Origin: a virus
Virus genome (UHGV): UHGV-0220583
Direction: 5' to 3' (one strand)
Length of the DNA stretch: 21,213 nt
Of the stretch, positions 2,665 through 21,213 are shown piece after piece. A model generated the notes under the pieces. It was not told the DNA's origin. It searched no databases and saw only the letters and a list, made by a program, of their open reading frames with translations. Each line of letters opens with the position of its first letter. Position 1 is the stretch's first letter. Both the position numbers and the translations under genes were made by a program.

Positions 2665-3018
2665 TTATGCCTCGCTTGTTACAGTCGTCTGGCCGTAGAT
2701 TGTGTCAATGGAGGAAGTGAAAGTGACGCGGCGGCTGGTGCCGTCATAATTGGTATCGAAGGAAAGAATCGACAGAACGCCCGGCGTGTCCTGTATGCGT
2801 TCGCGTATAGCCAGGATGTAGACGTCTGATCGCTGTTTCCCAAGCACTGACTGAACATACGGCGTGCCTTCCGTCAGATCGAGAAACCACTGACCGCGCC
2901 AGAGCTCGAAACGGGTTTTTACGGCCTGGGCGACACATTCCGGACTGTCGATAAGGAAGGTGTCGTCACCTTGCCCGAAAGTGTAATCGCCGTCAGCATC
3001 TTCTCGTCGGTATCGCAT
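2665..3018 (-). CDS. baseplate wedge protein, gp25/GPW-like
   Basis: 117 aa ORF immediately downstream of the spike gene and abutting the J-like gene; size and position match T4 gp25 / P2 gpW / Mu gp46. Confidence 0.5.
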   Translation of the reverse strand: MRYRREDADGDYTFGQGDDTFLIDSPECVAQAVKTRFELWRGQWFLDLTEGTPYVQSVLGKQRSDVYILAIRERIQDTPGVLSILSFDTNYDGTSRRVTFTSSIDTIYGQTTVTSEA

Positions 3019-3758
3019 TATTGCGGCCCTCCAGTAGTTCCCCCGCCTGTCTGAACTCCGCCATGTTTATGCGTGGCGACACTTATACCTGAAGCTGTCA
3101 CATCATTCGTTACCGTAACCGGCCCAAGCATCGTCGCAGTACCACCACTTTCTCCCATTCCCTGAGACAGATTGCCATTAATCGTTACGTTGCCGTTCAG
3201 CGTGATAGTCGGGGATGTGATTGTCGTTCCACCTTCAGCCGTAGCCGTGAGCTGGCCCGGCGTTTTAATGGTGATGTTATGTCCTGCGGCGACCTCTACG
3301 AACGCCGCGCCATCATCGGTTCGCAGCTGCGCGGCGCTAGTACTGATACCGCTGATTTTCTGTGCTTGCGACTGCGGGCCAACGATGGCGAACGCATCAG
3401 ACAAGTCATGCTGGCGCGGGTCGACGGTCTCCTGAACGCCGCCGCTCTGCCACCAGAAATCTATGCATCGGTCAGCAAAGATCAGCAGGCACTCGTCGCC
3501 TTCTTTAACCGGAAAGGTCAGCGTGCAGCCGCCGCCGCGCGGGAAGATGACAGGAACATCCACCAGCGGTTTTAATTCGGTGGAGCCATCGCCAACAATA
3601 CCGCGAAGCGCCACCTCTACTGTGCAGGTAACAGTGTCAGGATCGAACGACTGAATGATGCCTGGCATCGCCACGCGCATCTGGGTAGACACCGAATCGG
3701 CAATGGCCTGCGCGGTCTGCTGCTCACCGCCGATCTGTGATTGAGTTGGAATTGGCAT
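3018..3758 (-). CDS. baseplate central spike protein (Mu gp45 / P2 gpV-like)
   Basis: ORF-track ORF 3018..3803 starts at TTG and reads through a terminator hairpin; the in-frame ATG at 3758 (MPIPTQSQIGGEQ...) with GGGG 5 nt upstream is the more plausible start. Gly/Thr-rich C-terminus ending ...SVATHKHGGVQTGGGTTGGPQ resembles the His-containing apex of spike proteins. Confidence 0.6.
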   Translation of the reverse strand: MPIPTQSQIGGEQQTAQAIADSVSTQMRVAMPGIIQSFDPDTVTCTVEVALRGIVGDGSTELKPLVDVPVIFPRGGGCTLTFPVKEGDECLLIFADRCIDFWWQSGGVQETVDPRQHDLSDAFAIVGPQSQAQKISGISTSAAQLRTDDGAAFVEVAAGHNITIKTPGQLTATAEGGTTITSPTITLNGNVTINGNLSQGMGESGGTATMLGPVTVTNDVTASGISVATHKHGGVQTGGGTTGGPQ

Positions 3759-3768
3759 AAAAACCCCA

Positions 3769-3794
3769 TAAAAAAACCCGCTCAGCGGCGGGTT
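3769..3794 (-). terminator. rho-independent terminator downstream of the lipoprotein gene
   Basis: Minus-strand RNA would read AACCCGC-CGCUGA-GCGGGUU followed by UUUUU (7-bp GC-rich stem, 6-nt loop, 7 U in a row including the stem base). Lies about 30 nt after the lipoprotein stop at 3824. Confidence 0.65.
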
Positions 3795-3823
3795 AGGATT
3801 CAATAAAATTTTTGAATAATATT

Positions 3824-4546
3824 TTATAACAACCCCATTTTTCTGGCTGCGTCAATGTTGTAAACATCACCATTACCACTACAAGGGGCGGCTACCGTAA
3901 CCATTTCCACATACCCCTTATTACCTTTCTGCTGGCATAAACTCGCGTGCATTTTCGCAAGCCTTGCTGCATGCTCAAAATCTATAAAACTATCAAACGA
4001 AGCTTCGCTTAAAGCTGTATATTTTGTTTTATCAGGAATGTTATGCGATTTTAATACACTGGAAAAATCATTCAAAGCTTTCGACAAGCTAGATATACAA
4101 AGGTTTTTATAATTTGCATTATCATATGCCGAAGCTCTTTTACATTCGTCAGCATAACCAGCAATGGCTATTTGGATGCGTCTCATCGTTAAATGATAGC
4201 CACCAACATTTACATAAACATTATCCATATTTTGAGAATTTGGATAGCGAGTAACAAAACCTAAATTGTTAATAGCTCGATTTAGTTCGTTTTCGGTTGA
4301 ATTTGCAGAATTAACATTTAACTTATCAACCTCTACTTCAGGGTGTGAAGCCTCAAACTTTTCAGCATCTTCTTTTTGTTTTTTCACTCTGTTTTTTTGA
4401 TTTTCATCAACTTGCTTTTCATATTCAACTTTTTCTCTCTCTTTTTGTGCCAGCCAGTCCCTTTGTGCGTTAACACCATTAGGGTCCCAACTGCATGAAG
4501 TCAAAAACACTGAGAAAAATATTGGAGTTATTGCAAGCATATTCAT
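3824..4546 (-). CDS. lipoprotein of unknown function, AT-rich moron
   Basis: ORF-track ORF 3824..4612 begins at TTG inside the upstream gene; the in-frame ATG at 4546 gives MNMLAITPIFFSVFLTSC with a lipobox (L-T-S-C). The gene is visibly AT-rich (roughly 35-40% GC by eye) against a GC-rich background, Lys/Glu/Asn-rich, and followed by its own terminator. Confidence 0.6.
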   Translation of the reverse strand: MNMLAITPIFFSVFLTSCSWDPNGVNAQRDWLAQKEREKVEYEKQVDENQKNRVKKQKEDAEKFEASHPEVEVDKLNVNSANSTENELNRAINNLGFVTRYPNSQNMDNVYVNVGGYHLTMRRIQIAIAGYADECKRASAYDNANYKNLCISSLSKALNDFSSVLKSHNIPDKTKYTALSEASFDSFIDFEHAARLAKMHASLCQQKGNKGYVEMVTVAAPCSGNGDVYNIDAARKMGLL

Positions 4547-4553
4547 CAGAAAT

Positions 4554-5618
4554 TCATCCTGCGGTTTTGTTAATGGACGCTCCTGATTGCAAATCACGCG
4601 CCCCTCTCGCAAAGCACATTAAATCCATGTACCACGCCTGACCTCTGGTGTCACCAGTATAATCGATAGCTTTGACGATATAAACGCCATCCGTCGCAAT
4701 GCTGGCAGCCTGTGACGTTGTGCCGGTCAGAACGCGGTTGCCGTTCTCTTCTGTTTCGGTGATACGCCCGGGCGACTGAGCGATTTCGCTATTGCCGAGC
4801 GCAGCGCGGTACACCGAAGCCTGATCGAGCTGGATAAGACCATTAATACGGATGTTTGGGTTTATCAGGCACCGCACGTTTACTCCGCCGCCCATCGTTT
4901 GTTGCGGCATACCGATCAGGCCAGTATCGGCATTCAACACAATGGCTTCGTGAATATATTTATCCTCCGGCACCATCTGGACCTGACCATCCACCAGCTG
5001 CCATGTCGCTTTGCACTGCGCAGCAATATTATCCATCACGTTACGGGTGGATGAATAAATCGCACGGCCACGAGGAAACACGGTATCAGGAAAGTCACCG
5101 GTAATGCCCTGCGTCACGCCGAACGCGTTGAAATCCTGCATAGTCGCCCGGTGCAGGTCCGCAACGGTATAACCAGCGGCAAGCGTGGTGATGGTAGTCG
5201 CGTAGAGGAACGCTTCGTGGTTACTGATGGCCTGAATCAGCACCCAGGAATCGGTGATGTTGTCCTTCCCGGTGACGGTGAAGCGAATATCACCGTCAAA
5301 TATCAGGCCGTAGTTCTGACCGTTCACCTGCCCTACCTGGTCTGGTGAAATCTCCCGGGCGACACCAACCTGGCTCGCATCAACATCCGGCGCAATACCG
5401 TCATACCCGGCAATGATGCGAATTTTTGCAAACTCCTGCCCCAGTATCTTGTTCGTGGTATCGGTCGAAAGGTTGTAAATTTTCACGTTCGCCACTCGCG
5501 GCCAGCGTGTATCTGCCCACTCGATCTGGAACGTGACCTTAAAATCAGACAGGGAAACGCCCTGCCAGTTCTGGTCCAACAGTTGCAGCTCAAAATGGCG
5601 CATCCAGTTAAGAGACAT
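4554..5618 (-). CDS. putative baseplate hub protein
   Basis: 354 aa ORF upstream of the spike gene and downstream of the tape measure and two small tail genes; assigned by position and size only. Confidence 0.4.
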   Translation of the reverse strand: MSLNWMRHFELQLLDQNWQGVSLSDFKVTFQIEWADTRWPRVANVKIYNLSTDTTNKILGQEFAKIRIIAGYDGIAPDVDASQVGVAREISPDQVGQVNGQNYGLIFDGDIRFTVTGKDNITDSWVLIQAISNHEAFLYATTITTLAAGYTVADLHRATMQDFNAFGVTQGITGDFPDTVFPRGRAIYSSTRNVMDNIAAQCKATWQLVDGQVQMVPEDKYIHEAIVLNADTGLIGMPQQTMGGGVNVRCLINPNIRINGLIQLDQASVYRAALGNSEIAQSPGRITETEENGNRVLTGTTSQAASIATDGVYIVKAIDYTGDTRGQAWYMDLMCFARGARDLQSGASINKTAG

Positions 5619-5620
5619 TT

Positions 5621-5926
5621 CTACTCCTGTACGAAAATGAGGTGGCTGTATGTGCCGAGGTTGGTTTTGGTGGGCTCGTCTGGTGCGCCAATATCGCAGC
5701 CAACGAGTAGCGCTCCGTTAATGCCTAGCTGAGGATATTGCTCAAGAAGATTTACACCAGTGACCAGTGGCACGCCACAAAGAAGCGGGTTTCCGCCACT
5801 ATCTTGCACATCCATAATCCAGCCAGCAGAATCACGCCAAATAACCCTTAGCGTATATGTTATCTCTGCTAACTGTATACGAAATAGCTGATTATCCGGT
5901 GACAGAGGGATTTCAGTTACATTCAT
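5621..5926 (-). CDS. tail/baseplate protein, unassigned
   Basis: 101 aa ORF, ATGA overlap with the upstream gene (start 5926, upstream stop 5923..5925), tightly packed in the tail module. Confidence 0.4.
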   Translation of the reverse strand: MNVTEIPLSPDNQLFRIQLAEITYTLRVIWRDSAGWIMDVQDSGGNPLLCGVPLVTGVNLLEQYPQLGINGALLVGCDIGAPDEPTKTNLGTYSHLIFVQE

Positions 5927-6549
5927 TGGACACCTATAGCGTTACCAATACTGGTTCCTTTTAGCCCATCAAACCAACCCGATGACTTAATTACCGATTC
6001 ATTTACTGGGGTTGCAGATTTCGTCCCGGAATTCTGGACCGCCGATGTGCTGACGCCATCCTGCATATCGGATTTATCAGCGACAGTGGCATTTTTTGTC
6101 TGCGTTATGATGACCTCACGCAGGGTTAGTGTGCAGTTCAGAACGTTCTCGCTGGTTTTGTCCGTTGTCACCTCGATGGCTCGCACCAGCATATTGCTGT
6201 ACACCCGCTTTCCGGTCACCACATCGAACGGCACCCGAGAGGACTGGAGATCCAGCAGTTGCTGATAGGTCTCTTTCGGGCTTAGTCCGGCGCTGAGGCC
6301 GATTGAAGATGTATCAATGAAGTCCAGCAACGAACCGCCACCAGCGAAGCCGCATTCCATTGTGACTTCGCTGGGGCGCTTATACGCATGATCGGCGATG
6401 AAGCCCGAAGCGCTATTCGTTGTTGGATTCTCCACCGGGTGCTCAGTAATTTCGAGCGCATCAGAATGCTTTTCGGAGACGACCACGCTGGGGATCAGCA
6501 GGCCAATTCGCCGGGATTGCTGGCGAAAAATCGCTGATAAAATATCCAT
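5923..6549 (-). CDS. tail protein immediately downstream of the tape measure, unassigned
   Basis: 208 aa ORF whose start overlaps the tape measure stop; assigned by position only. Confidence 0.4.
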   Translation of the reverse strand: MDILSAIFRQQSRRIGLLIPSVVVSEKHSDALEITEHPVENPTTNSASGFIADHAYKRPSEVTMECGFAGGGSLLDFIDTSSIGLSAGLSPKETYQQLLDLQSSRVPFDVVTGKRVYSNMLVRAIEVTTDKTSENVLNCTLTLREVIITQTKNATVADKSDMQDGVSTSAVQNSGTKSATPVNESVIKSSGWFDGLKGTSIGNAIGVQ

Positions 6550-8564
6550 TATCTCGGTCCTGCGGGGAGTTGCTGGGTTAACTGTGAATTCACGCCCTTT
6601 TGACGGTCAACAGTCAAACGGGCAGCTTCGCGAGGATCGGAAACGCCGTGGATGTTAATGTTCGTTTCCTGCTGAATCACCGGGGCGCTGGTGGGCATAT
6701 TGCTCATTACTTTCGGAATGTAGTTGCGCGTTTCCTGCGGCATTAGCCCCATTCCATAGCGCTTAACATTCCCGATCCCCCAGTTATATGATGCCAGTGC
6801 TTTGCTAAGGTCTCCGCCGTTCTGCCGCAACAGCTGGCTGAGGTACTTAGCTGCGGCCTGAGCTGACTTTTGCGGGTCGAATACATCGTTTCCGCGAAGG
6901 CCCATGTCTCGCGCCGTGCCATCCATGAACTGGAACAGACCTTTAGCGCCAGCGCCTGAAACGGCGAACTGATTACCGCCAGATTCCGTTATGGCCACAC
7001 TGCGCAATAACCCCTCCGGAAGCCGGTAGAGCTGTTCCAGGTTGGTAAGCATCGGCTGCATCCATCCCAGCAGTTCAGAGCCTGCTTTGGTTGGCTGTGG
7101 CCGCTTAACTGACTGGCCGAGCTGTTCAGGCTCATCATCACCGAACCAGCCGCGCACCGTTCGGCCCACGCTGCGAGGATCGAATCCCCAGTGCTCTTTA
7201 ATCCAGTCGGCTGTACCGTTGGCGCTGTCTGTTACCATCGGCATCGCTGACGGATTTTCGCTGCCCTGATTTAGCAGCTGTTTGCCTATACTAGCGGCCT
7301 GCGCCCAGTTGCCATCTTTTATGGCATTCAGCAAATCAGCGATCATGTTCAGCATCTTGCCGAACTCACCCATTTGCGAAATGAAGTTGCTAAAATCCCA
7401 CTTTAGGGACCATGACTTGGGGTCAATACCGAGCAACTTAGCCAGCGCTTTTGTCAGGTCCGTAACAGTCTTTTTCAGGTCACCAATCATTTTGACGGCC
7501 TGATCAATTTCAGTCTTCCATTTCCCCCAGTCAATCAGGCTTTTGCCACCTTCTTTCCACGTCTGGTAATCATCCAAGAGCAGACCAAGTGCAATAATAA
7601 GCGTCGTTATCATGCCCAAGGGTGATGACATGAAAGCGGTATTTAGCAGCCGCCATGCAACCAACAGCCCACTGAACAATGCGATAAGCTGCTGCGTGGC
7701 TGGGTTCAGCTTTTTGAACCAGGCGATCACACCCTCAACAGCTTGCCCAGTTCGCCATAACACGCGGGTAATCGCGTCACCTGCCCAGAGAATTCCTTTG
7801 ATGATCTTCGTGATGACCGCTTCAATCTTCGGCCAGTTGTCGAGTATCTGCCTGCGGAAGTTATCAATACTGCCAGCAAGGCCACCAGCTAGGTTAGAGC
7901 CAATCTTGTCTTTCGCCTGTCCAAGCGTCATCGTCAGATTACGCATGGAGGTCATGAAAATATTGGACTGTTTAGCCGCTGACTCAGCATTAAAACCAAT
8001 ACGCTTTGCCGTCAACGCGTACTCAGAACTGAGCTGCCCCATCCCTCTGCGCATCGCCATCAGCGTGTTTTCATCGATGCCAAGCATCTGCGCGTATTGT
8101 TTCGCGCGGTAATACGGCATGTTGTTGAGCTTTTGCCCAACGCCAGTAAAGATGGCCGCAGTATCACGCATCTTTCCGCTGGCATCGCGGGTCTGTACGC
8201 CCAGACGGTTCAGGAACCCTTCCGCCCCCGGATTGCTACGCATGAAACCAGCCAACCCTTCAAGAGAGGACATGGCCGACTCGGCGCTGGCACCGGTTTG
8301 CGATGCGGCATAGCCCAGCGCTTTGATGCCCTGGACGCTGGCCCCCGTCCGCTGGGATGCCCAGTAAATTTTATCCAGACCATTCGCGATCTGGGTGGTA
8401 AATCCGACAATGCTAAGCGCTGAGCCTTTCACCACCGCGCCGACCTTCAGAACGTTCGCGGTAACGCCTTTCAGCACGGCTTCAAACTTATTAGCGCCAG
8501 CCTGATCGATATCGAATCCCAGCGAAACAAGGAAATCTTTAATCGTATCTGCGTTACCGCTCAT
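6549..8564 (-). CDS. tail tape measure protein with C-terminal lytic transglycosylase (SLT) domain
   Basis: 671 aa ORF after the sheath-tube-chaperone set. Start has GGAGA 7 nt upstream. Hydrophobic segments at roughly aa 290-330. Around aa 515-605 it carries family-1 lytic transglycosylase motifs: AITESGGN, GLFQF, SYNWG. Confidence 0.8.
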   Translation of the reverse strand: MSGNADTIKDFLVSLGFDIDQAGANKFEAVLKGVTANVLKVGAVVKGSALSIVGFTTQIANGLDKIYWASQRTGASVQGIKALGYAASQTGASAESAMSSLEGLAGFMRSNPGAEGFLNRLGVQTRDASGKMRDTAAIFTGVGQKLNNMPYYRAKQYAQMLGIDENTLMAMRRGMGQLSSEYALTAKRIGFNAESAAKQSNIFMTSMRNLTMTLGQAKDKIGSNLAGGLAGSIDNFRRQILDNWPKIEAVITKIIKGILWAGDAITRVLWRTGQAVEGVIAWFKKLNPATQQLIALFSGLLVAWRLLNTAFMSSPLGMITTLIIALGLLLDDYQTWKEGGKSLIDWGKWKTEIDQAVKMIGDLKKTVTDLTKALAKLLGIDPKSWSLKWDFSNFISQMGEFGKMLNMIADLLNAIKDGNWAQAASIGKQLLNQGSENPSAMPMVTDSANGTADWIKEHWGFDPRSVGRTVRGWFGDDEPEQLGQSVKRPQPTKAGSELLGWMQPMLTNLEQLYRLPEGLLRSVAITESGGNQFAVSGAGAKGLFQFMDGTARDMGLRGNDVFDPQKSAQAAAKYLSQLLRQNGGDLSKALASYNWGIGNVKRYGMGLMPQETRNYIPKVMSNMPTSAPVIQQETNINIHGVSDPREAARLTVDRQKGVNSQLTQQLPAGPR

Positions 8565-19482: not shown

Positions 19483-19952
19483 CCCATCATCTTGCGGTAA
19501 ATCTCTGCGGCCTGATCTGCAGTGAGATTGGTCGTCTCGGTCTTGATCGGGCCGCCATCCTTGCCGGTGCTCTCAACCTTCAGCTTATTGGTGTAAGCGT
19601 CGCCAACCTCTTTCGCGGCCTGTTCAATCAGCTGCGCCGTCAGGGAGAAGTTTTTCATCCCCTCGGTTTTGGTTGCCATGCGGTCAAGCACGCGGAGGCG
19701 ATAGGATTTGTTCGCGATCGGAATGTCGCTGGTTTCGGTCAGGAACCGTTCGCGCGTCGCGTGGAACATCTCGATCCACTTTTTGGCGAGCGTCTTACCG
19801 CTGGCCTTCGTGGGGTCGTGAGATTCAGCCTGCTGGCGGGTGATCTTGATCCCAAATTCTTTTTGGACAGCCTCGACCACCTGCGATGGCGTGTCATAGC
19901 ACGCAAGCGACTGAATGATGAAGGCTTTCACATCAGGTTTTAATGCAGCCAT
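19479..19952 (-). CDS. terS: terminase small subunit (putative)
   Basis: 157 aa ORF immediately upstream of, and translationally coupled to, the large subunit gene; N-terminus [34 protein letters not shown] resembles small-subunit proteins of enterobacterial prophages as I recall them. Confidence 0.55.
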
Positions 19953-19983
19953 AAATCACCATTCGTCTTATACAGTCCAGTAT

Positions 19984-20604
19984 TTAAGCCAGTCGCAGCA
20001 TGCACGTCCCGCACGCTCTGGCAATATCGAGATGAGCAACCTCCGCTGGCTGATTCGCCGCATCAATCATTTCCTGCACGTCCCGGCTCGCACCGTAACG
20101 GCGAACCACGCCCACAAACTCTTCCACGTCATGGCCGCGCAGCTTCAGCTTTGGCTGCCCTTCCTGCGTGAACTTCGGCGCACCAAATTCATCTGTCGCT
20201 TGGCAGATGTGATAAAGCTCGTGCTCTATCAGCGCGCAGAATTCCAGATCGGAACATTGCGAGCAGTAATCGGCGGCCAGCGTGATGATGAACTGCGGCA
20301 CCCTGCCGAACCATTCATACATCTGCTGCTCCATCCGCGCTTTCTGCCAGCCTCCGGCCCGCATTGCCACTTCTTCCGCCTGCCCCAGCACGGAGCGCCC
20401 TTTCTTCTCGAAAGCGTTCGACGCCCAGAGAAAGCACAGATCCGCTTCAAGCAAATGCTGATGGTCAGGGTTGTAGAGGTCGCCCTCATCGCTCAGGATG
20501 TGCTGATTCAGCCACTCGCCAACGTCACTGGCGGGCATTATGCTGATGTACGGCTTCGGGTCAGGTGGCATCGTAAAATGCGCTGGTGGGTGTGGTCTGT
20601 TCAT
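19984..20604 (-). CDS. HExxH-motif protein with two CxxC motifs, putative zinc metallopeptidase-like, function unknown
   Basis: 206 aa ORF containing IEHELYHI (HExxH) flanked by CSQC and CGTC. Sits between the lysis genes and the terminase. Start at 20604 has no strong SD, so the start is uncertain. Confidence 0.5.
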   Translation of the reverse strand: MNRPHPPAHFTMPPDPKPYISIMPASDVGEWLNQHILSDEGDLYNPDHQHLLEADLCFLWASNAFEKKGRSVLGQAEEVAMRAGGWQKARMEQQMYEWFGRVPQFIITLAADYCSQCSDLEFCALIEHELYHICQATDEFGAPKFTQEGQPKLKLRGHDVEEFVGVVRRYGASRDVQEMIDAANQPAEVAHLDIARACGTCMLRLA

Positions 20605-20660
20605 GAATAATTCCAGTGCTCCATTATCGAAGCCCCTCAGTGTGAAGGGCTTCTGTAATG

Positions 20661-20846
20661 TCAGTCCCGGACGAACGTAACCTTTGTGGTTATCATTCGC
20701 CGTACAAGGCGCGTCGCTTCGCGTTGCATTTCATCAATTACTTTTGGCGTCAGCGGCTGACGCGCATATTTGCGCTCAATCTCTGCAAAAATCCCGTTCA
20801 GCACCTCGCTGTCTGGTGGGATAACTTCAACGTTTAATCGTGCCAT
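20661..20846 (-). CDS. small hypothetical protein
   Basis: 61 aa ORF; ATG at 20846 has AGGA 7 nt upstream and overlaps the Rz1-like 3' end by 20 nt. Confidence 0.4.
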   Translation of the reverse strand: MARLNVEVIPPDSEVLNGIFAEIERKYARQPLTPKVIDEMQREATRLVRRMITTKVTFVRD

Positions 20847-21105
20847 CGGTTTGTCCTGCCCTGTTGTTCTCGAAAGTCCTGATATCAGCCTTATCCCTGT
20901 TGCACTGTGCTAACGCTGACAACAACGCAACATTCAGGTTAAGGCTTGCTCCCCACGTAAACGGATCGGGTAAATCTGGCTGGGGTGTTTCAGCCGTCAG
21001 GTTGGCTGGTAACGGAACCACCGGAACTGGAACGTAGACCGTTCGCGTAGTCGTGCAGCCGCTTAACTGCGCCAGAAGGCACAAAACGAACAGCACAATC
21101 ATCAT
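20827..21105 (-). CDS. o-spanin, Rz1-like outer membrane lipoprotein
   Basis: ORF-track ORF 20827..21171; the internal tandem ATG at 21105/21102 gives MMIVLFVLCLLAQLSGC, a lipoprotein signal with lipobox L-S-G-C, followed by a Pro-rich mature region. It overlaps the Rz-like frame and extends past its stop. Confidence 0.55.
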   Translation of the reverse strand: MMIVLFVLCLLAQLSGCTTTRTVYVPVPVVPLPANLTAETPQPDLPDPFTWGASLNLNVALLSALAQCNRDKADIRTFENNRAGQTDGTIKR

Positions 21106-21213
21106 CCGCAACAGCAGCCTTGATATCGTTCTCGGTTCTCTGTGACTCCAGTGTGATCTGCTGTTTTGCATGCTGGTTAGCCTCCAGAACTGTATTGACG
21201 ATTTGCAGTGATT
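20990..21213 (-). CDS. i-spanin, Rz-like, C-terminal part (N-terminus beyond window end)
   Basis: Hand translation of the minus strand from 21211 gives an open frame SLQIVNTVLEANQHAKQQITLESQRTENDIKAAVADDDCAVRFVPSGAVKRLHDYANGLRSSSGGSVTSQPDG with stop at 20990..20992. Not in the ORF track because it has no start in the window. Confidence 0.5.
   Translation of the reverse strand, partial: SLQIVNTVLEANQHAKQQITLESQRTENDIKAAVADDDCAVRFVPSGAVKRLHDYANGLRSSSGGSVTSQPDG

Follow-up and report, generated by a model that had tools for sequence, protein, structure and literature searches.

Within a 21,213-nt stretch of the virus genome UHGV-0220583 (the whole stretch is called the window here), we investigated an AT-rich block that lies between the baseplate hub and spike genes of a myophage and carries a single gene (3824..4546, minus strand) for a predicted lipoprotein of 240 amino acids (aa). 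This block is one occupant of a hub-spike slot that was filled in all enterobacterial relatives examined, and the first gene of the slot encodes an exported protein from one of two families, which we call A (the family of the window protein) and B. While tail operons are already known to carry accessory genes whose products act in the envelope, the protein family and its fold, the exported first gene with its two families and four architectures, the cassette junction inside the hub gene, and a terminator belonging to the slot as a whole are new. As to function, we tentatively propose that the lipoprotein may be an outer-membrane-anchored periplasmic factor that hinders the envelope-crossing step of phage entry, and we give roughly even chances to a role in phage exclusion of any kind. 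Rather than a surprise, the locus offers a clearly delimited candidate exclusion system that lends itself to testing.

The original prediction, made from the window alone, described an AT-rich block with a single gene of about 240 codons, and a GC profile bears this out. The lipoprotein gene has a GC fraction of 0.361 (0.28 at third codon positions) compared to 0.535 (0.62) for the hub and 0.569 (0.59) for the spike gene; 723-nt windows outside the block average 0.548 (standard deviation 0.024, minimum 0.481), which places the gene at z = -7.8. The block is AT-rich and foreign in composition. Its opposite strand holds no open reading frame (ORF) of 50 aa or more, and a search around the block for flanking direct or inverted repeats as signatures of mobile elements found none. 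The gene recurs identically in E. coli M172-1, where RefSeq labels it as a 723-nt hypothetical protein. The ratio of nonsynonymous to synonymous substitution rates (dN/dS) is 0.09 compared to an 87%-identical allele (dS 0.74) and 0.15–0.26 compared to distant alleles, and this is therefore a real gene under purifying selection.

Megablast searches with positions 3000..5700 retrieved 53 E. coli genomes and Citrobacter phage Omnitron with flanks matching at 94–98%, whereas the middle was matched by M172-1 only. Homology to relatives with other cargo ends at 3778–3814 on the spike side and at 4587–4600 on the hub side. The last ~12 codons of the hub gene (about 4554–4600) are part of the exchangeable cassette, and the C-terminal tail of the hub varies with the cargo and holds the ribosome-binding site of the cargo gene. 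The gene had been predicted to start 8 nt past the hub stop; the close spacing stands, although the ATG actually follows the hub TGA (4554..4556) by 7 nt, on the minus strand. The GGA-TGA arrangement of the hub end is shared by the A-type cassettes of Serratia, Pantoea, and E. coli AR_0118. With the ribosome-binding site and the cassette junction both inside the final hub codons, the view of an independent unit at the 5' end has to be given up: the lipoprotein gene appears to be tied translationally and transcriptionally to the hub gene and should therefore at least be co-transcribed with the late tail operon.

To survey the slot more broadly, we scanned IMG/VR with a hub alignment and obtained 80 loci, 73 of them with both flanks. 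All 73 slots are filled, with 417–2193 bp of a GC fraction of 0.35–0.47 that is always below that of the flanks. Filled low-GC slots are also present in the isolated phages Brunovirus SEN34, Hafnia phage yong1, Klebsiella phage Mulock, ST11-OXA48phi15.1, and E. coli phage vB_EcoM-683R1, and the E. coli prophages and Citrobacter phage Omnitron likewise have a filled AT-rich slot. Altogether, some 100 related lambdoid myophages and prophages carry AT-rich cargo at this place. In distant relatives with equal tail synteny, namely the virulent Rosemountvirus BP63, the temperate Bordetella phage IFTN9, and the Acinetobacter phage AbTJ, hub and spike genes abut or overlap; two Burkholderia phages have one reverse-strand gene between them. 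Because the distant relatives abut and the enterobacterial slots are all filled, the slot appears to be an insertion relative to the ancestral arrangement, yet a fixed feature of the enterobacterial lineage. The expectation that relatives have hub and spike adjacent without the insert thus holds for distant phages and fails for the enterobacterial lineage, where every locus examined was filled. The idea of a horizontally acquired moron (an accessory gene) is upheld by the foreign composition and by the adjacency in BP63, IFTN9, and AbTJ, but not in its form of a sporadic, independent insertion, as family A sits at exactly the hub-spike position in Serratia, Citrobacter koseri, Pantoea, E. coli, and metagenomic phages, and A or B occurs in 73 of 73 loci. 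A literature search on the related phages yielded only genome announcements, in which the hub-spike slot is not described.

The first slot gene is exported in every relative classified. Among the 73 IMG/VR loci it belongs to family A in 5 and to family B in 68, and an exported first gene is also present in the E. coli prophages, SEN34, Mulock, yong1, 683R1, phi15.1, and Omnitron. Family A has no entry in PHROGs or Pfam. Family B corresponds to phrog_3443 and comprises proteins of ~112–126 aa with a Sec signal peptide and two invariant cysteines, and a profile-profile comparison of A with B revealed no homology. Both families additionally have long forms that are lipoproteins (354–378 aa for A, e.g. 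in E. coli AR_0118; 296–299 aa for B), whose N-terminal domains of ~180 aa (N-domains) are homologous (BLASTP E-value 6e-8, 23% identity over 164 residues). Four architectures, lipobox-helix-A, lipobox-N-domain-A, Sec signal-B, and lipobox-N-domain-B, are consequently found at one position, which suggests that A and B may be interchangeable heads with an equal job in the periplasm. The first slot protein of yong1 is a remote relative of the A head (hhalign E-value 0.0012) with a truncated head, denoted A'. SEN34_20 (77 aa) and the first slot gene of yong1 (136 aa) appear to be annotated from starts too far downstream; reading SEN34 from TTG 3571 (locus sequence L021, 3571-3912; 113 aa) and yong1 from GTG 3568 (L022, 3568-4032; 154 aa) restores clear Sec signal peptides.

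Family A occupies exactly the hub-spike position in eight of eight independent contexts (Serratia, C. koseri, Pantoea, two metagenomic contigs, M172-1, AR_0118, and the window). It diverges in step with hub and spike, with identities to the window for A, hub, and spike of 62, 78, and 70% in Serratia, 53, 68, and 50% in Pantoea, and 43, 64, and 45% in C. koseri. The dS of 0.74 between A alleles beside 98%-identical hubs shows that cassettes are also exchanged, as would be expected of an arms-race gene. Phages with 96–98% identical hubs and 98–100% identical spikes carry the unrelated family B instead, which argues that the lipoprotein is not a virion part; as it belongs to no recognizable family, it should not be a baseplate part assembled in the cytoplasm either. 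A structural or assembly component of the baseplate, or alternatively a decaying, non-functional insert, would agree with a gene inside the baseplate block whose position is kept across genera. Both versions are nevertheless effectively refuted and highly improbable given the cleavable lipoprotein signal with its invariant Cys, the replacement by an unrelated protein in phages with nearly identical hubs and spikes, the strong purifying selection (dN/dS 0.09), and the confident AlphaFold2 fold described below.

The cargo of the slot is otherwise diverse. We observed Phd/Doc behind a secreted protein of ~115 aa, a DUF4236 gene on the reverse strand, hypothetical proteins of 53–210 aa, a single 371-aa lipoprotein, HExxH-like proteins, and small membrane proteins. 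The Phd/YefM-Doc toxin-antitoxin pair occurs in some prophages (L003, 1318-2138, E. coli ECONIH5), and the reverse-strand DUF4236 gene in many others (L004, 1482-1772, E. coli PEC422). One recurrent second cargo of 188–197 aa with the HExxH-like motif RHEAGHW corresponds to phrog_36675 (Serratia prophage L006, 6322-6915; ST11-OXA48phi15.1, L025, 4138-4704) and may be a metalloprotease-type defence or abortive-infection gene. Another, the cytoplasmic protein phrog_19013 of 166–170 aa (vB_EcoM-683R1, L024, 3897-4409; L028, 4822-5322), follows both B-type and A-type first genes, and the second cargo therefore seems independent of the first gene.

We then turned to the window protein itself, for which a lipoprotein signal, a Lys/Glu-rich coiled-coil-like stretch, and a Cys-containing C-terminal region had been predicted, all of which were recovered. 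The sequence F-L-T-S-C18, with the lipobox LTSC, matches the PROSITE PS51257-type pattern, and Cys18 is invariant in 26 aligned homologues (L-[TAS]-[SAG]-C). Requiring [LVI][ASTVI][GAS]C after a hydrophobic h-region with the Cys at approximately position 15–35, we found a PROSITE-style lipobox in most of 84 relatives, including distant ones, and Asp at +2 in none. The lipoprotein call is thus a strong prediction, and with Ser at +2 the E. coli Lol rule predicts that the protein is sorted to the outer membrane. The mature protein would have 223 aa, 25 kDa, and a pI of 6.6. Four further cysteines (135, 150, 204, and 222) are invariant in the family alignment and probably fit two periplasmic disulfides. 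The charged stretch corresponds to one predicted long helix (residues 25–67), which we read as a tether because distant family A members replace it by other linkers or by the ~180-aa N-domain. The head that follows is conserved, with the motifs SHPEV, FVTR, ECKRxSAY, and IDFEHAARLAxMH, and is retained by the profile search in all 36 representatives. AlphaFold2 with the family alignment gave a predicted local distance difference test score (pLDDT) of 87.8 and a predicted template modelling score of 0.74, with the head modelled confidently and residues 1–17 disordered (pLDDT <50), as expected of a signal peptide.

That the protein was not recognized at first sight agrees with all searches. No Pfam, PHROG, PADLOC, or meaningful NCBIfam family was found for it, and Foldseek returned no significant match in PDB or BFVD (BFVD entry H9C1A6 reached an E-value of only 0.027); the head appears to be a confidently predicted fold without a solved relative. 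The sole PADLOC match, Cas6f (E-value 0.042), is at chance level. BamD (NCBIfam TIGR03302, E-value 2e-5, 24 bits compared to a cut-off of 81) was rejected, since the match spans the signal peptide and the charged helix and represents an artefact of composition or of the signal peptide. An o-spanin (Rz1/LysC) was likewise rejected: the window has a separate LysC gene, and the 240-aa protein is encoded in the baseplate block, not in the lysis cassette. A weak DUF1311/LprI resemblance of the head is the only lead towards another possible role, protection of the envelope against attack by something other than phages. Here, the head would inhibit peptidoglycan hydrolases (host lysozyme, or the amidases and muramidases of type VI secretion systems) or colicins, as a fitness factor of lysogenic conversion like LprI-domain proteins. 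We consider this improbable. The resemblance covers only about one-third of the head and lies within the noise for helical bundles; compared to the DUF1311/LprI lysozyme inhibitor (PDB 3gi7; PMC7933661), the window protein has no match to Pfam PF07007 at any threshold.

Family A is small, with 49 clusters at 90% identity and 36 representatives at 50% identity among 1.84 billion proteins; all members with a source name come from Enterobacterales, and all are annotated as "hypothetical". The exact window protein occurs on 83 contigs (Citrobacter freundii, E. coli, and other Enterobacteriaceae), the DNA of its gene in one of 5,426 complete E. coli genomes (M172-1). A tblastn search with the distant family A member P0075 matched Hafnia phage yong1 only (E-value 1e-4).

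A strong, private terminator had been proposed between the lipoprotein gene and the spike gene. A hairpin followed by a T-run is indeed present, with a 7-bp stem (3794..3775; five G-C pairs), a 6-nt loop, and T7 at 3774..3768. The spike start had to be corrected to the ATG at 3758 instead of 3767/3769, as in RefSeq relatives, where the gene is annotated at 741 nt; the terminator ends 10 nt before this ATG and abuts the GGGG Shine-Dalgarno sequence of the spike gene. Its folding energy is unremarkable (z = -1.5 compared to shuffled sequences, 71-nt context), and as the energy alone is not significant, the terminator is supported by its conservation. Under a strict rule, 99 of 103 related loci have a comparable hairpin and T-run no more than 80 nt upstream of the spike, the four misses being the two Burkholderia phages and two loci where both elements are visible by eye. 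Across these loci we counted 31 distinct hairpin sequences, and an alignment of 17 relatives shows compensatory changes in the stem. The terminator is therefore not private to the lipoprotein gene but belongs to the hub-spike slot, whatever its cargo. E. coli M172-1 (L002, 2297-2596), like L015 and L016, has one copy of the slot terminator on either side of a ~300-bp module with a 53-aa ORF (WP_016243572.1), an arrangement suggesting that terminator sequences are where cargo modules are gained or swapped. Sub-threshold Rfam matches at 3768-3860 (minus strand) to Trp_leader (33 bits compared to 41) and to isrK (24 compared to 50), the latter an Hfq-binding small RNA in Rfam, both overlap the hairpin and T-run and most likely reflect the terminator.

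As had been noted before, there is no convincing sigma-70 promoter: a scan yielded 3 matches where 3.3 are expected by chance. The only sigma-70-like match upstream of the lipoprotein gene, TTTATA-17-TATACT, falls in hub codons ~304–332, where the variability of synonymous sites is the lowest of the hub gene (normalized entropy 0.27 compared to a gene mean of 0.50; 99 unique sequences). The eight lowest of 301 windows of synonymous variability all lie in this block, and T321 is encoded by ACT in 98 of 98 sequences. This low variability fits an embedded promoter and fits equally a recombination anchor beside the cassette junction; we regard it as a lead.

Transcription of the slot can be placed in the context of lambdoid gene regulation. 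SEN34 is lambdoid (CI/CII/O/P/Nin) and has a Q-like antiterminator gene just ahead of its lysis and structural operon, and Klebsiella phage Mulock has been described as lambda-syntenic (PMC6856289). In classical moron logic, an internal terminator is passed during lytic growth and stops only transcripts without Q modification (PMC3594210). A conserved terminator makes sense only if transcripts unmodified by Q enter the slot, so that such transcripts likely exist; the near-universal terminator would be indirect evidence for them. During lytic growth, Q-modified transcription would thus yield the lipoprotein alongside the tail proteins and pass the terminator, while in a lysogen a weak promoter in the 3' end of the hub gene may drive the lipoprotein gene, with the terminator halting the transcript before the spike. 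Alternatively, the protein could be a helper of the lytic cycle without any lysogenic role, made from the Q-dependent late transcript only, for instance in lysis timing or the sensing of lysis inhibition (like T4 RI), in protection from lysis-from-without, or in conditioning the envelope for release. The ribosome-binding site in the last hub codons, the 7-nt spacer, and the absence of a proven promoter imply expression with the late tail genes, and for optional cargo it is unusual that all enterobacterial relatives classified have an exported first gene. Yet a conserved intrinsic terminator right behind the slot would be difficult to account for if all passing transcripts were antiterminated, the distant BP63 (virulent) and the temperate Bordetella and Acinetobacter phages are viable without any slot gene, the lysis genes including the Rz1-like LysC lie elsewhere in the window, and accessory genes typically show low GC and cassette swapping. 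A purely lytic helper seems rather unlikely to us.

For the proposed hindrance of phage entry, the following course of events can be envisaged. After processing by Lgt and LspA and Lol sorting (Ser at +2), the lipoprotein would be anchored in the inner leaflet of the outer membrane, and the helix would reach several nanometres into the periplasm and place the head close to the peptidoglycan. In this position, the head would interfere with the envelope crossing of incoming phages of a matching tail type, possible targets being the complex of tail tip and tape measure, the SLT cell-wall hydrolase domain of the tape measure, or an envelope partner of the host. Superinfection exclusion would then work as with T4 Spackle, HK97 gp15, or TP-J34 Ltp, and not by masking a surface receptor.

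Receptor masking was the precedent originally invoked, by reference to Llp and Cor; it remains valid as a functional analogy, but we found no relation in sequence or fold, and the gene does not lie beside the fibre gene. In a mechanism of this type, the lipoprotein would bind the periplasmic face of a transporter or porin of the outer membrane that serves as receptor and jam it in a form that phages cannot bind, which would exclude superinfecting phages and keep progeny from adsorbing to debris. In its favour are the prediction of a periplasm-facing outer-membrane lipoprotein, its conserved cysteines, and the place of its gene in the tail module, expressed together with the late genes, as well as the precedent of T5 Llp, a periplasmic outer-membrane lipoprotein with a disulfide whose gene lies beside the receptor-binding gene; such lipoproteins are thought to be common in coliphages (PMC9586334). 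However, the window protein is three times larger, its long stalk would distance the head from the membrane, and its gene adjoins hub and spike at ~2.5 kb from the fibre gene, which lies downstream, beyond position 788. At least three fibre types (Gp53-like_C, Collar/Phage_fiber, and Gp10_C) occur in A-bearing phages, which share hub, spike, and SLT tape measure. Moreover, A alternates with family B, whose forms are mostly soluble periplasmic proteins, so that a periplasmic rather than a surface site of action is suggested. Because of the varied fibres beside the same hub, spike, and tape measure, the mostly soluble B, and the stalk, we favour interference with the tail tip or DNA entry over receptor jamming, which we hold to be a minor possibility, although none of these grounds is decisive.

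Several points weigh against our proposal of interference with phage entry. No homology in Pfam, PHROGs, NCBIfam, PADLOC, or the PDB profile search ties family A to any exclusion protein, and nothing meaningful was retrieved for the protein from these collections at all. A tblastn search of the window protein against 50,697 deposited phage genomes gave no match, and family A is known from prophages and metagenomic contigs, save for the remote relative in yong1. The A or B type shows no association with the types of the tape-measure C-terminus, Dit, plug, spike, gp25-like protein, or J (80 loci, 5 of them A). Expression in lysogens rests on the candidate promoter, a match not above chance, and the stalk geometry is inferred from a predicted model. 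The n-region of the signal in the window allele (MNMLAIT) has no Lys or Arg among its first ~7 residues; as most other family A members have one there (MKML.., MRRF.., MKK..), this is a weakness of the window allele and not of the family.

Among known systems, the closest in gene layout is the tail-operon moron HK97 gene 15, whose product gp15 blocks DNA entry in a tail-dependent manner (PMC3594210). Both are extra genes between tail genes that are adjacent in relatives, with deviant GC, a terminator behind them, a Q-antiterminated late operon, and an envelope product. Measured by the moron criteria of the same work, extra DNA, deviant composition, and a terminator are present here, the terminator being slot-wide; as for a promoter of its own, the upstream match is not above chance and lies in the hub block of lowest synonymous variability. 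In contrast to HK97, there is no demonstrated promoter, the start signals are embedded in the hub gene, and the slot is never empty in the lineage, its first gene always coming from one of two exported families; HK97 gp15 is a small, YebO-like inner-membrane protein, while the window protein is a predicted 240-aa outer-membrane lipoprotein. T5 Llp (PMC9586334) and Cor share with it the predicted periplasm-facing position at the outer membrane, conserved cysteines, and a gene in the tail region; no similarity in sequence or fold was found, and the window protein is about three times larger (mature 223 aa compared to ~60–80 aa) and stalked, with a gene next to hub and spike instead of the receptor-binding protein and no co-variation with fibre type. 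T4 Spackle (gp61.3), a periplasmic inhibitor of the tail-spike lysozyme gp5 (PMC7677548, PMC7650644), is comparable as an exported phage protein able to meet the incoming tail tip in the periplasm, and the window phage has a tail-borne SLT hydrolase; Spackle, however, is a small, soluble, early protein without homology in the Pfam, PHROGs, and PDB searches.

Phage hotspots of accessory and defence genes, such as the Z/fun and tin/old loci of P2, were reportedly described by Rousset et al. in 2022. They likewise combine a fixed late-region position with interchangeable AT-rich cargo, but belong to another phage lineage and another position, and the hub-spike slot differs in its two parts, an obligatory exported first gene followed by optional cargo. 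TP-J34 Ltp targets the tape-measure protein of the incoming phage. It is a prophage lipoprotein with a similar layout of tether plus domain, although it is Gram-positive and surface-exposed with a helix-turn-helix-like repeat fold (PMC3952083), and the window protein has no Pfam match. One might go further and regard A, B, the shared N-domain, and A' of yong1 as polymorphic, domain-shuffled periplasmic decoys or inhibitors directed against tail penetration of the E217/Pam3 type (via the SLT domain of the tape measure or the hub-spike tip). Their cassette would be hot-swappable: the hub gene would contain its 5' junction, its ribosome-binding site, and perhaps its promoter, and the universal terminator would close it at the 3' end. 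This would amount to a Spackle-like principle of exclusion, so far unknown in temperate enterobacterial phages. In its entirety, we see such a scheme as speculative and improbable.

The window as a whole is a myophage late operon for lysis, head, and tail, encoded on the minus strand. It begins with the Rz1-like LysC and the small (DUF2280) and large terminase subunits, continues with portal, MuF-like protein, DUF2213, cement protein, and major capsid, followed by neck proteins, sheath (DUF3383), tube (KPP10_Orf10), chaperone, and tape measure with SLT domain, then a Dit-like protein, a Pam3 gp18-like plug, the E217 gp41-like hub, and the AT-rich block, after which come the gpV-like spike, a gp25-like initiator, baseplate J, and DUF2612. 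The phage is a lambdoid temperate myophage with an E217/Pam3-type tail and a relative of Brunovirus SEN34. Between the lysis genes and the small terminase, a 206-aa ORF (19984-20604, minus strand) corresponds to phrog_513 'transposase' (E-value 3e-97); a 231-aa ORF opposite to it (19915-20610) matches nothing and is likely spurious. At 5700-6150, GC dips a second time, less deeply (0.45), across the junction of the plug and Dit-like genes; as the plug of the relatives falls into two types (~78% and ~94% identity), the dip looks like another mosaic boundary. Features of the slot and its surroundings are listed in Table 1.

Table 1 Features of the hub-spike slot and of selected neighbouring genes, in coordinates of the window.
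Feature	Coordinates	Strand	Evidence or remark
Baseplate spike gene, gpV-like, 246 aa, downstream flank of the slot	3018..3758	minus	PF18352 N-domain, E-value 1e-41; PF18946 GpV Apex motif
Intrinsic terminator AACCCGC-CGCTGA-GCGGGTT + T7	3768..3794	minus	Hairpin and T-run
Lipoprotein coding sequence, family A, 240 aa, ATG, begins MNMLAITPIFFSVFLTSC	3824..4546	minus	ORF list
Residues 68-240, conserved alpha/beta head, Cys 135/150/204/222	3827..4345	minus	Alignment, profile search, AlphaFold2
Residues 25-67, E/K/Q/R-rich long helix, read as tether/stalk	4346..4474	minus	AlphaFold2 helix, residues 25-67; 63% E/K/R/Q/D
Type II (lipoprotein) signal peptide, lipobox LTSC, Cys18 predicted acylation site, Ser at +2	4493..4546	minus	Lipobox pattern, alignment
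Baseplate hub gene (E217 gp41-like), upstream flank of the slot	4554..5618	minus	phrog_196, E-value 6e-83; PF22759
Shine-Dalgarno AGGA of the lipoprotein gene, within the final hub codons (..GCA GGA TGA, 7 nt, ATG)	4557..4560	minus	Read from the sequence
Candidate sigma-70 promoter TTTATA-17-TATACT, within the hub coding sequence, hypothesis only	4656..4684	minus	9/12 positions, not above chance
Tape measure	6549..8564	minus	SLT domain PF01464, E-value 1e-24, at 6750..7037 (aa 510-605)
LysC/Rz1-like gene	20827..21171	minus	Separate from the lipoprotein gene

On the practical side, the RefSeq starts of SEN34_20 and of the first slot gene of yong1 appear to be mis-annotated in a way that hides their signal peptides. 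If our reading is correct, the hub-spike junction would be an unreported hotspot in widespread lambdoid myophages and prophages of Escherichia, Citrobacter, Salmonella, Klebsiella, Serratia, Pantoea, and Hafnia, and two uncharacterized exported families could be assigned a testable function, phage-phage exclusion during the periplasmic step of infection. The modular design of lipobox, tether, and head, together with a cassette junction placed in an essential structural gene, would represent a variation on how morons are built and exchanged. Such factors would shape prophage-mediated resistance, which may be relevant to host-range failures in phage therapy.

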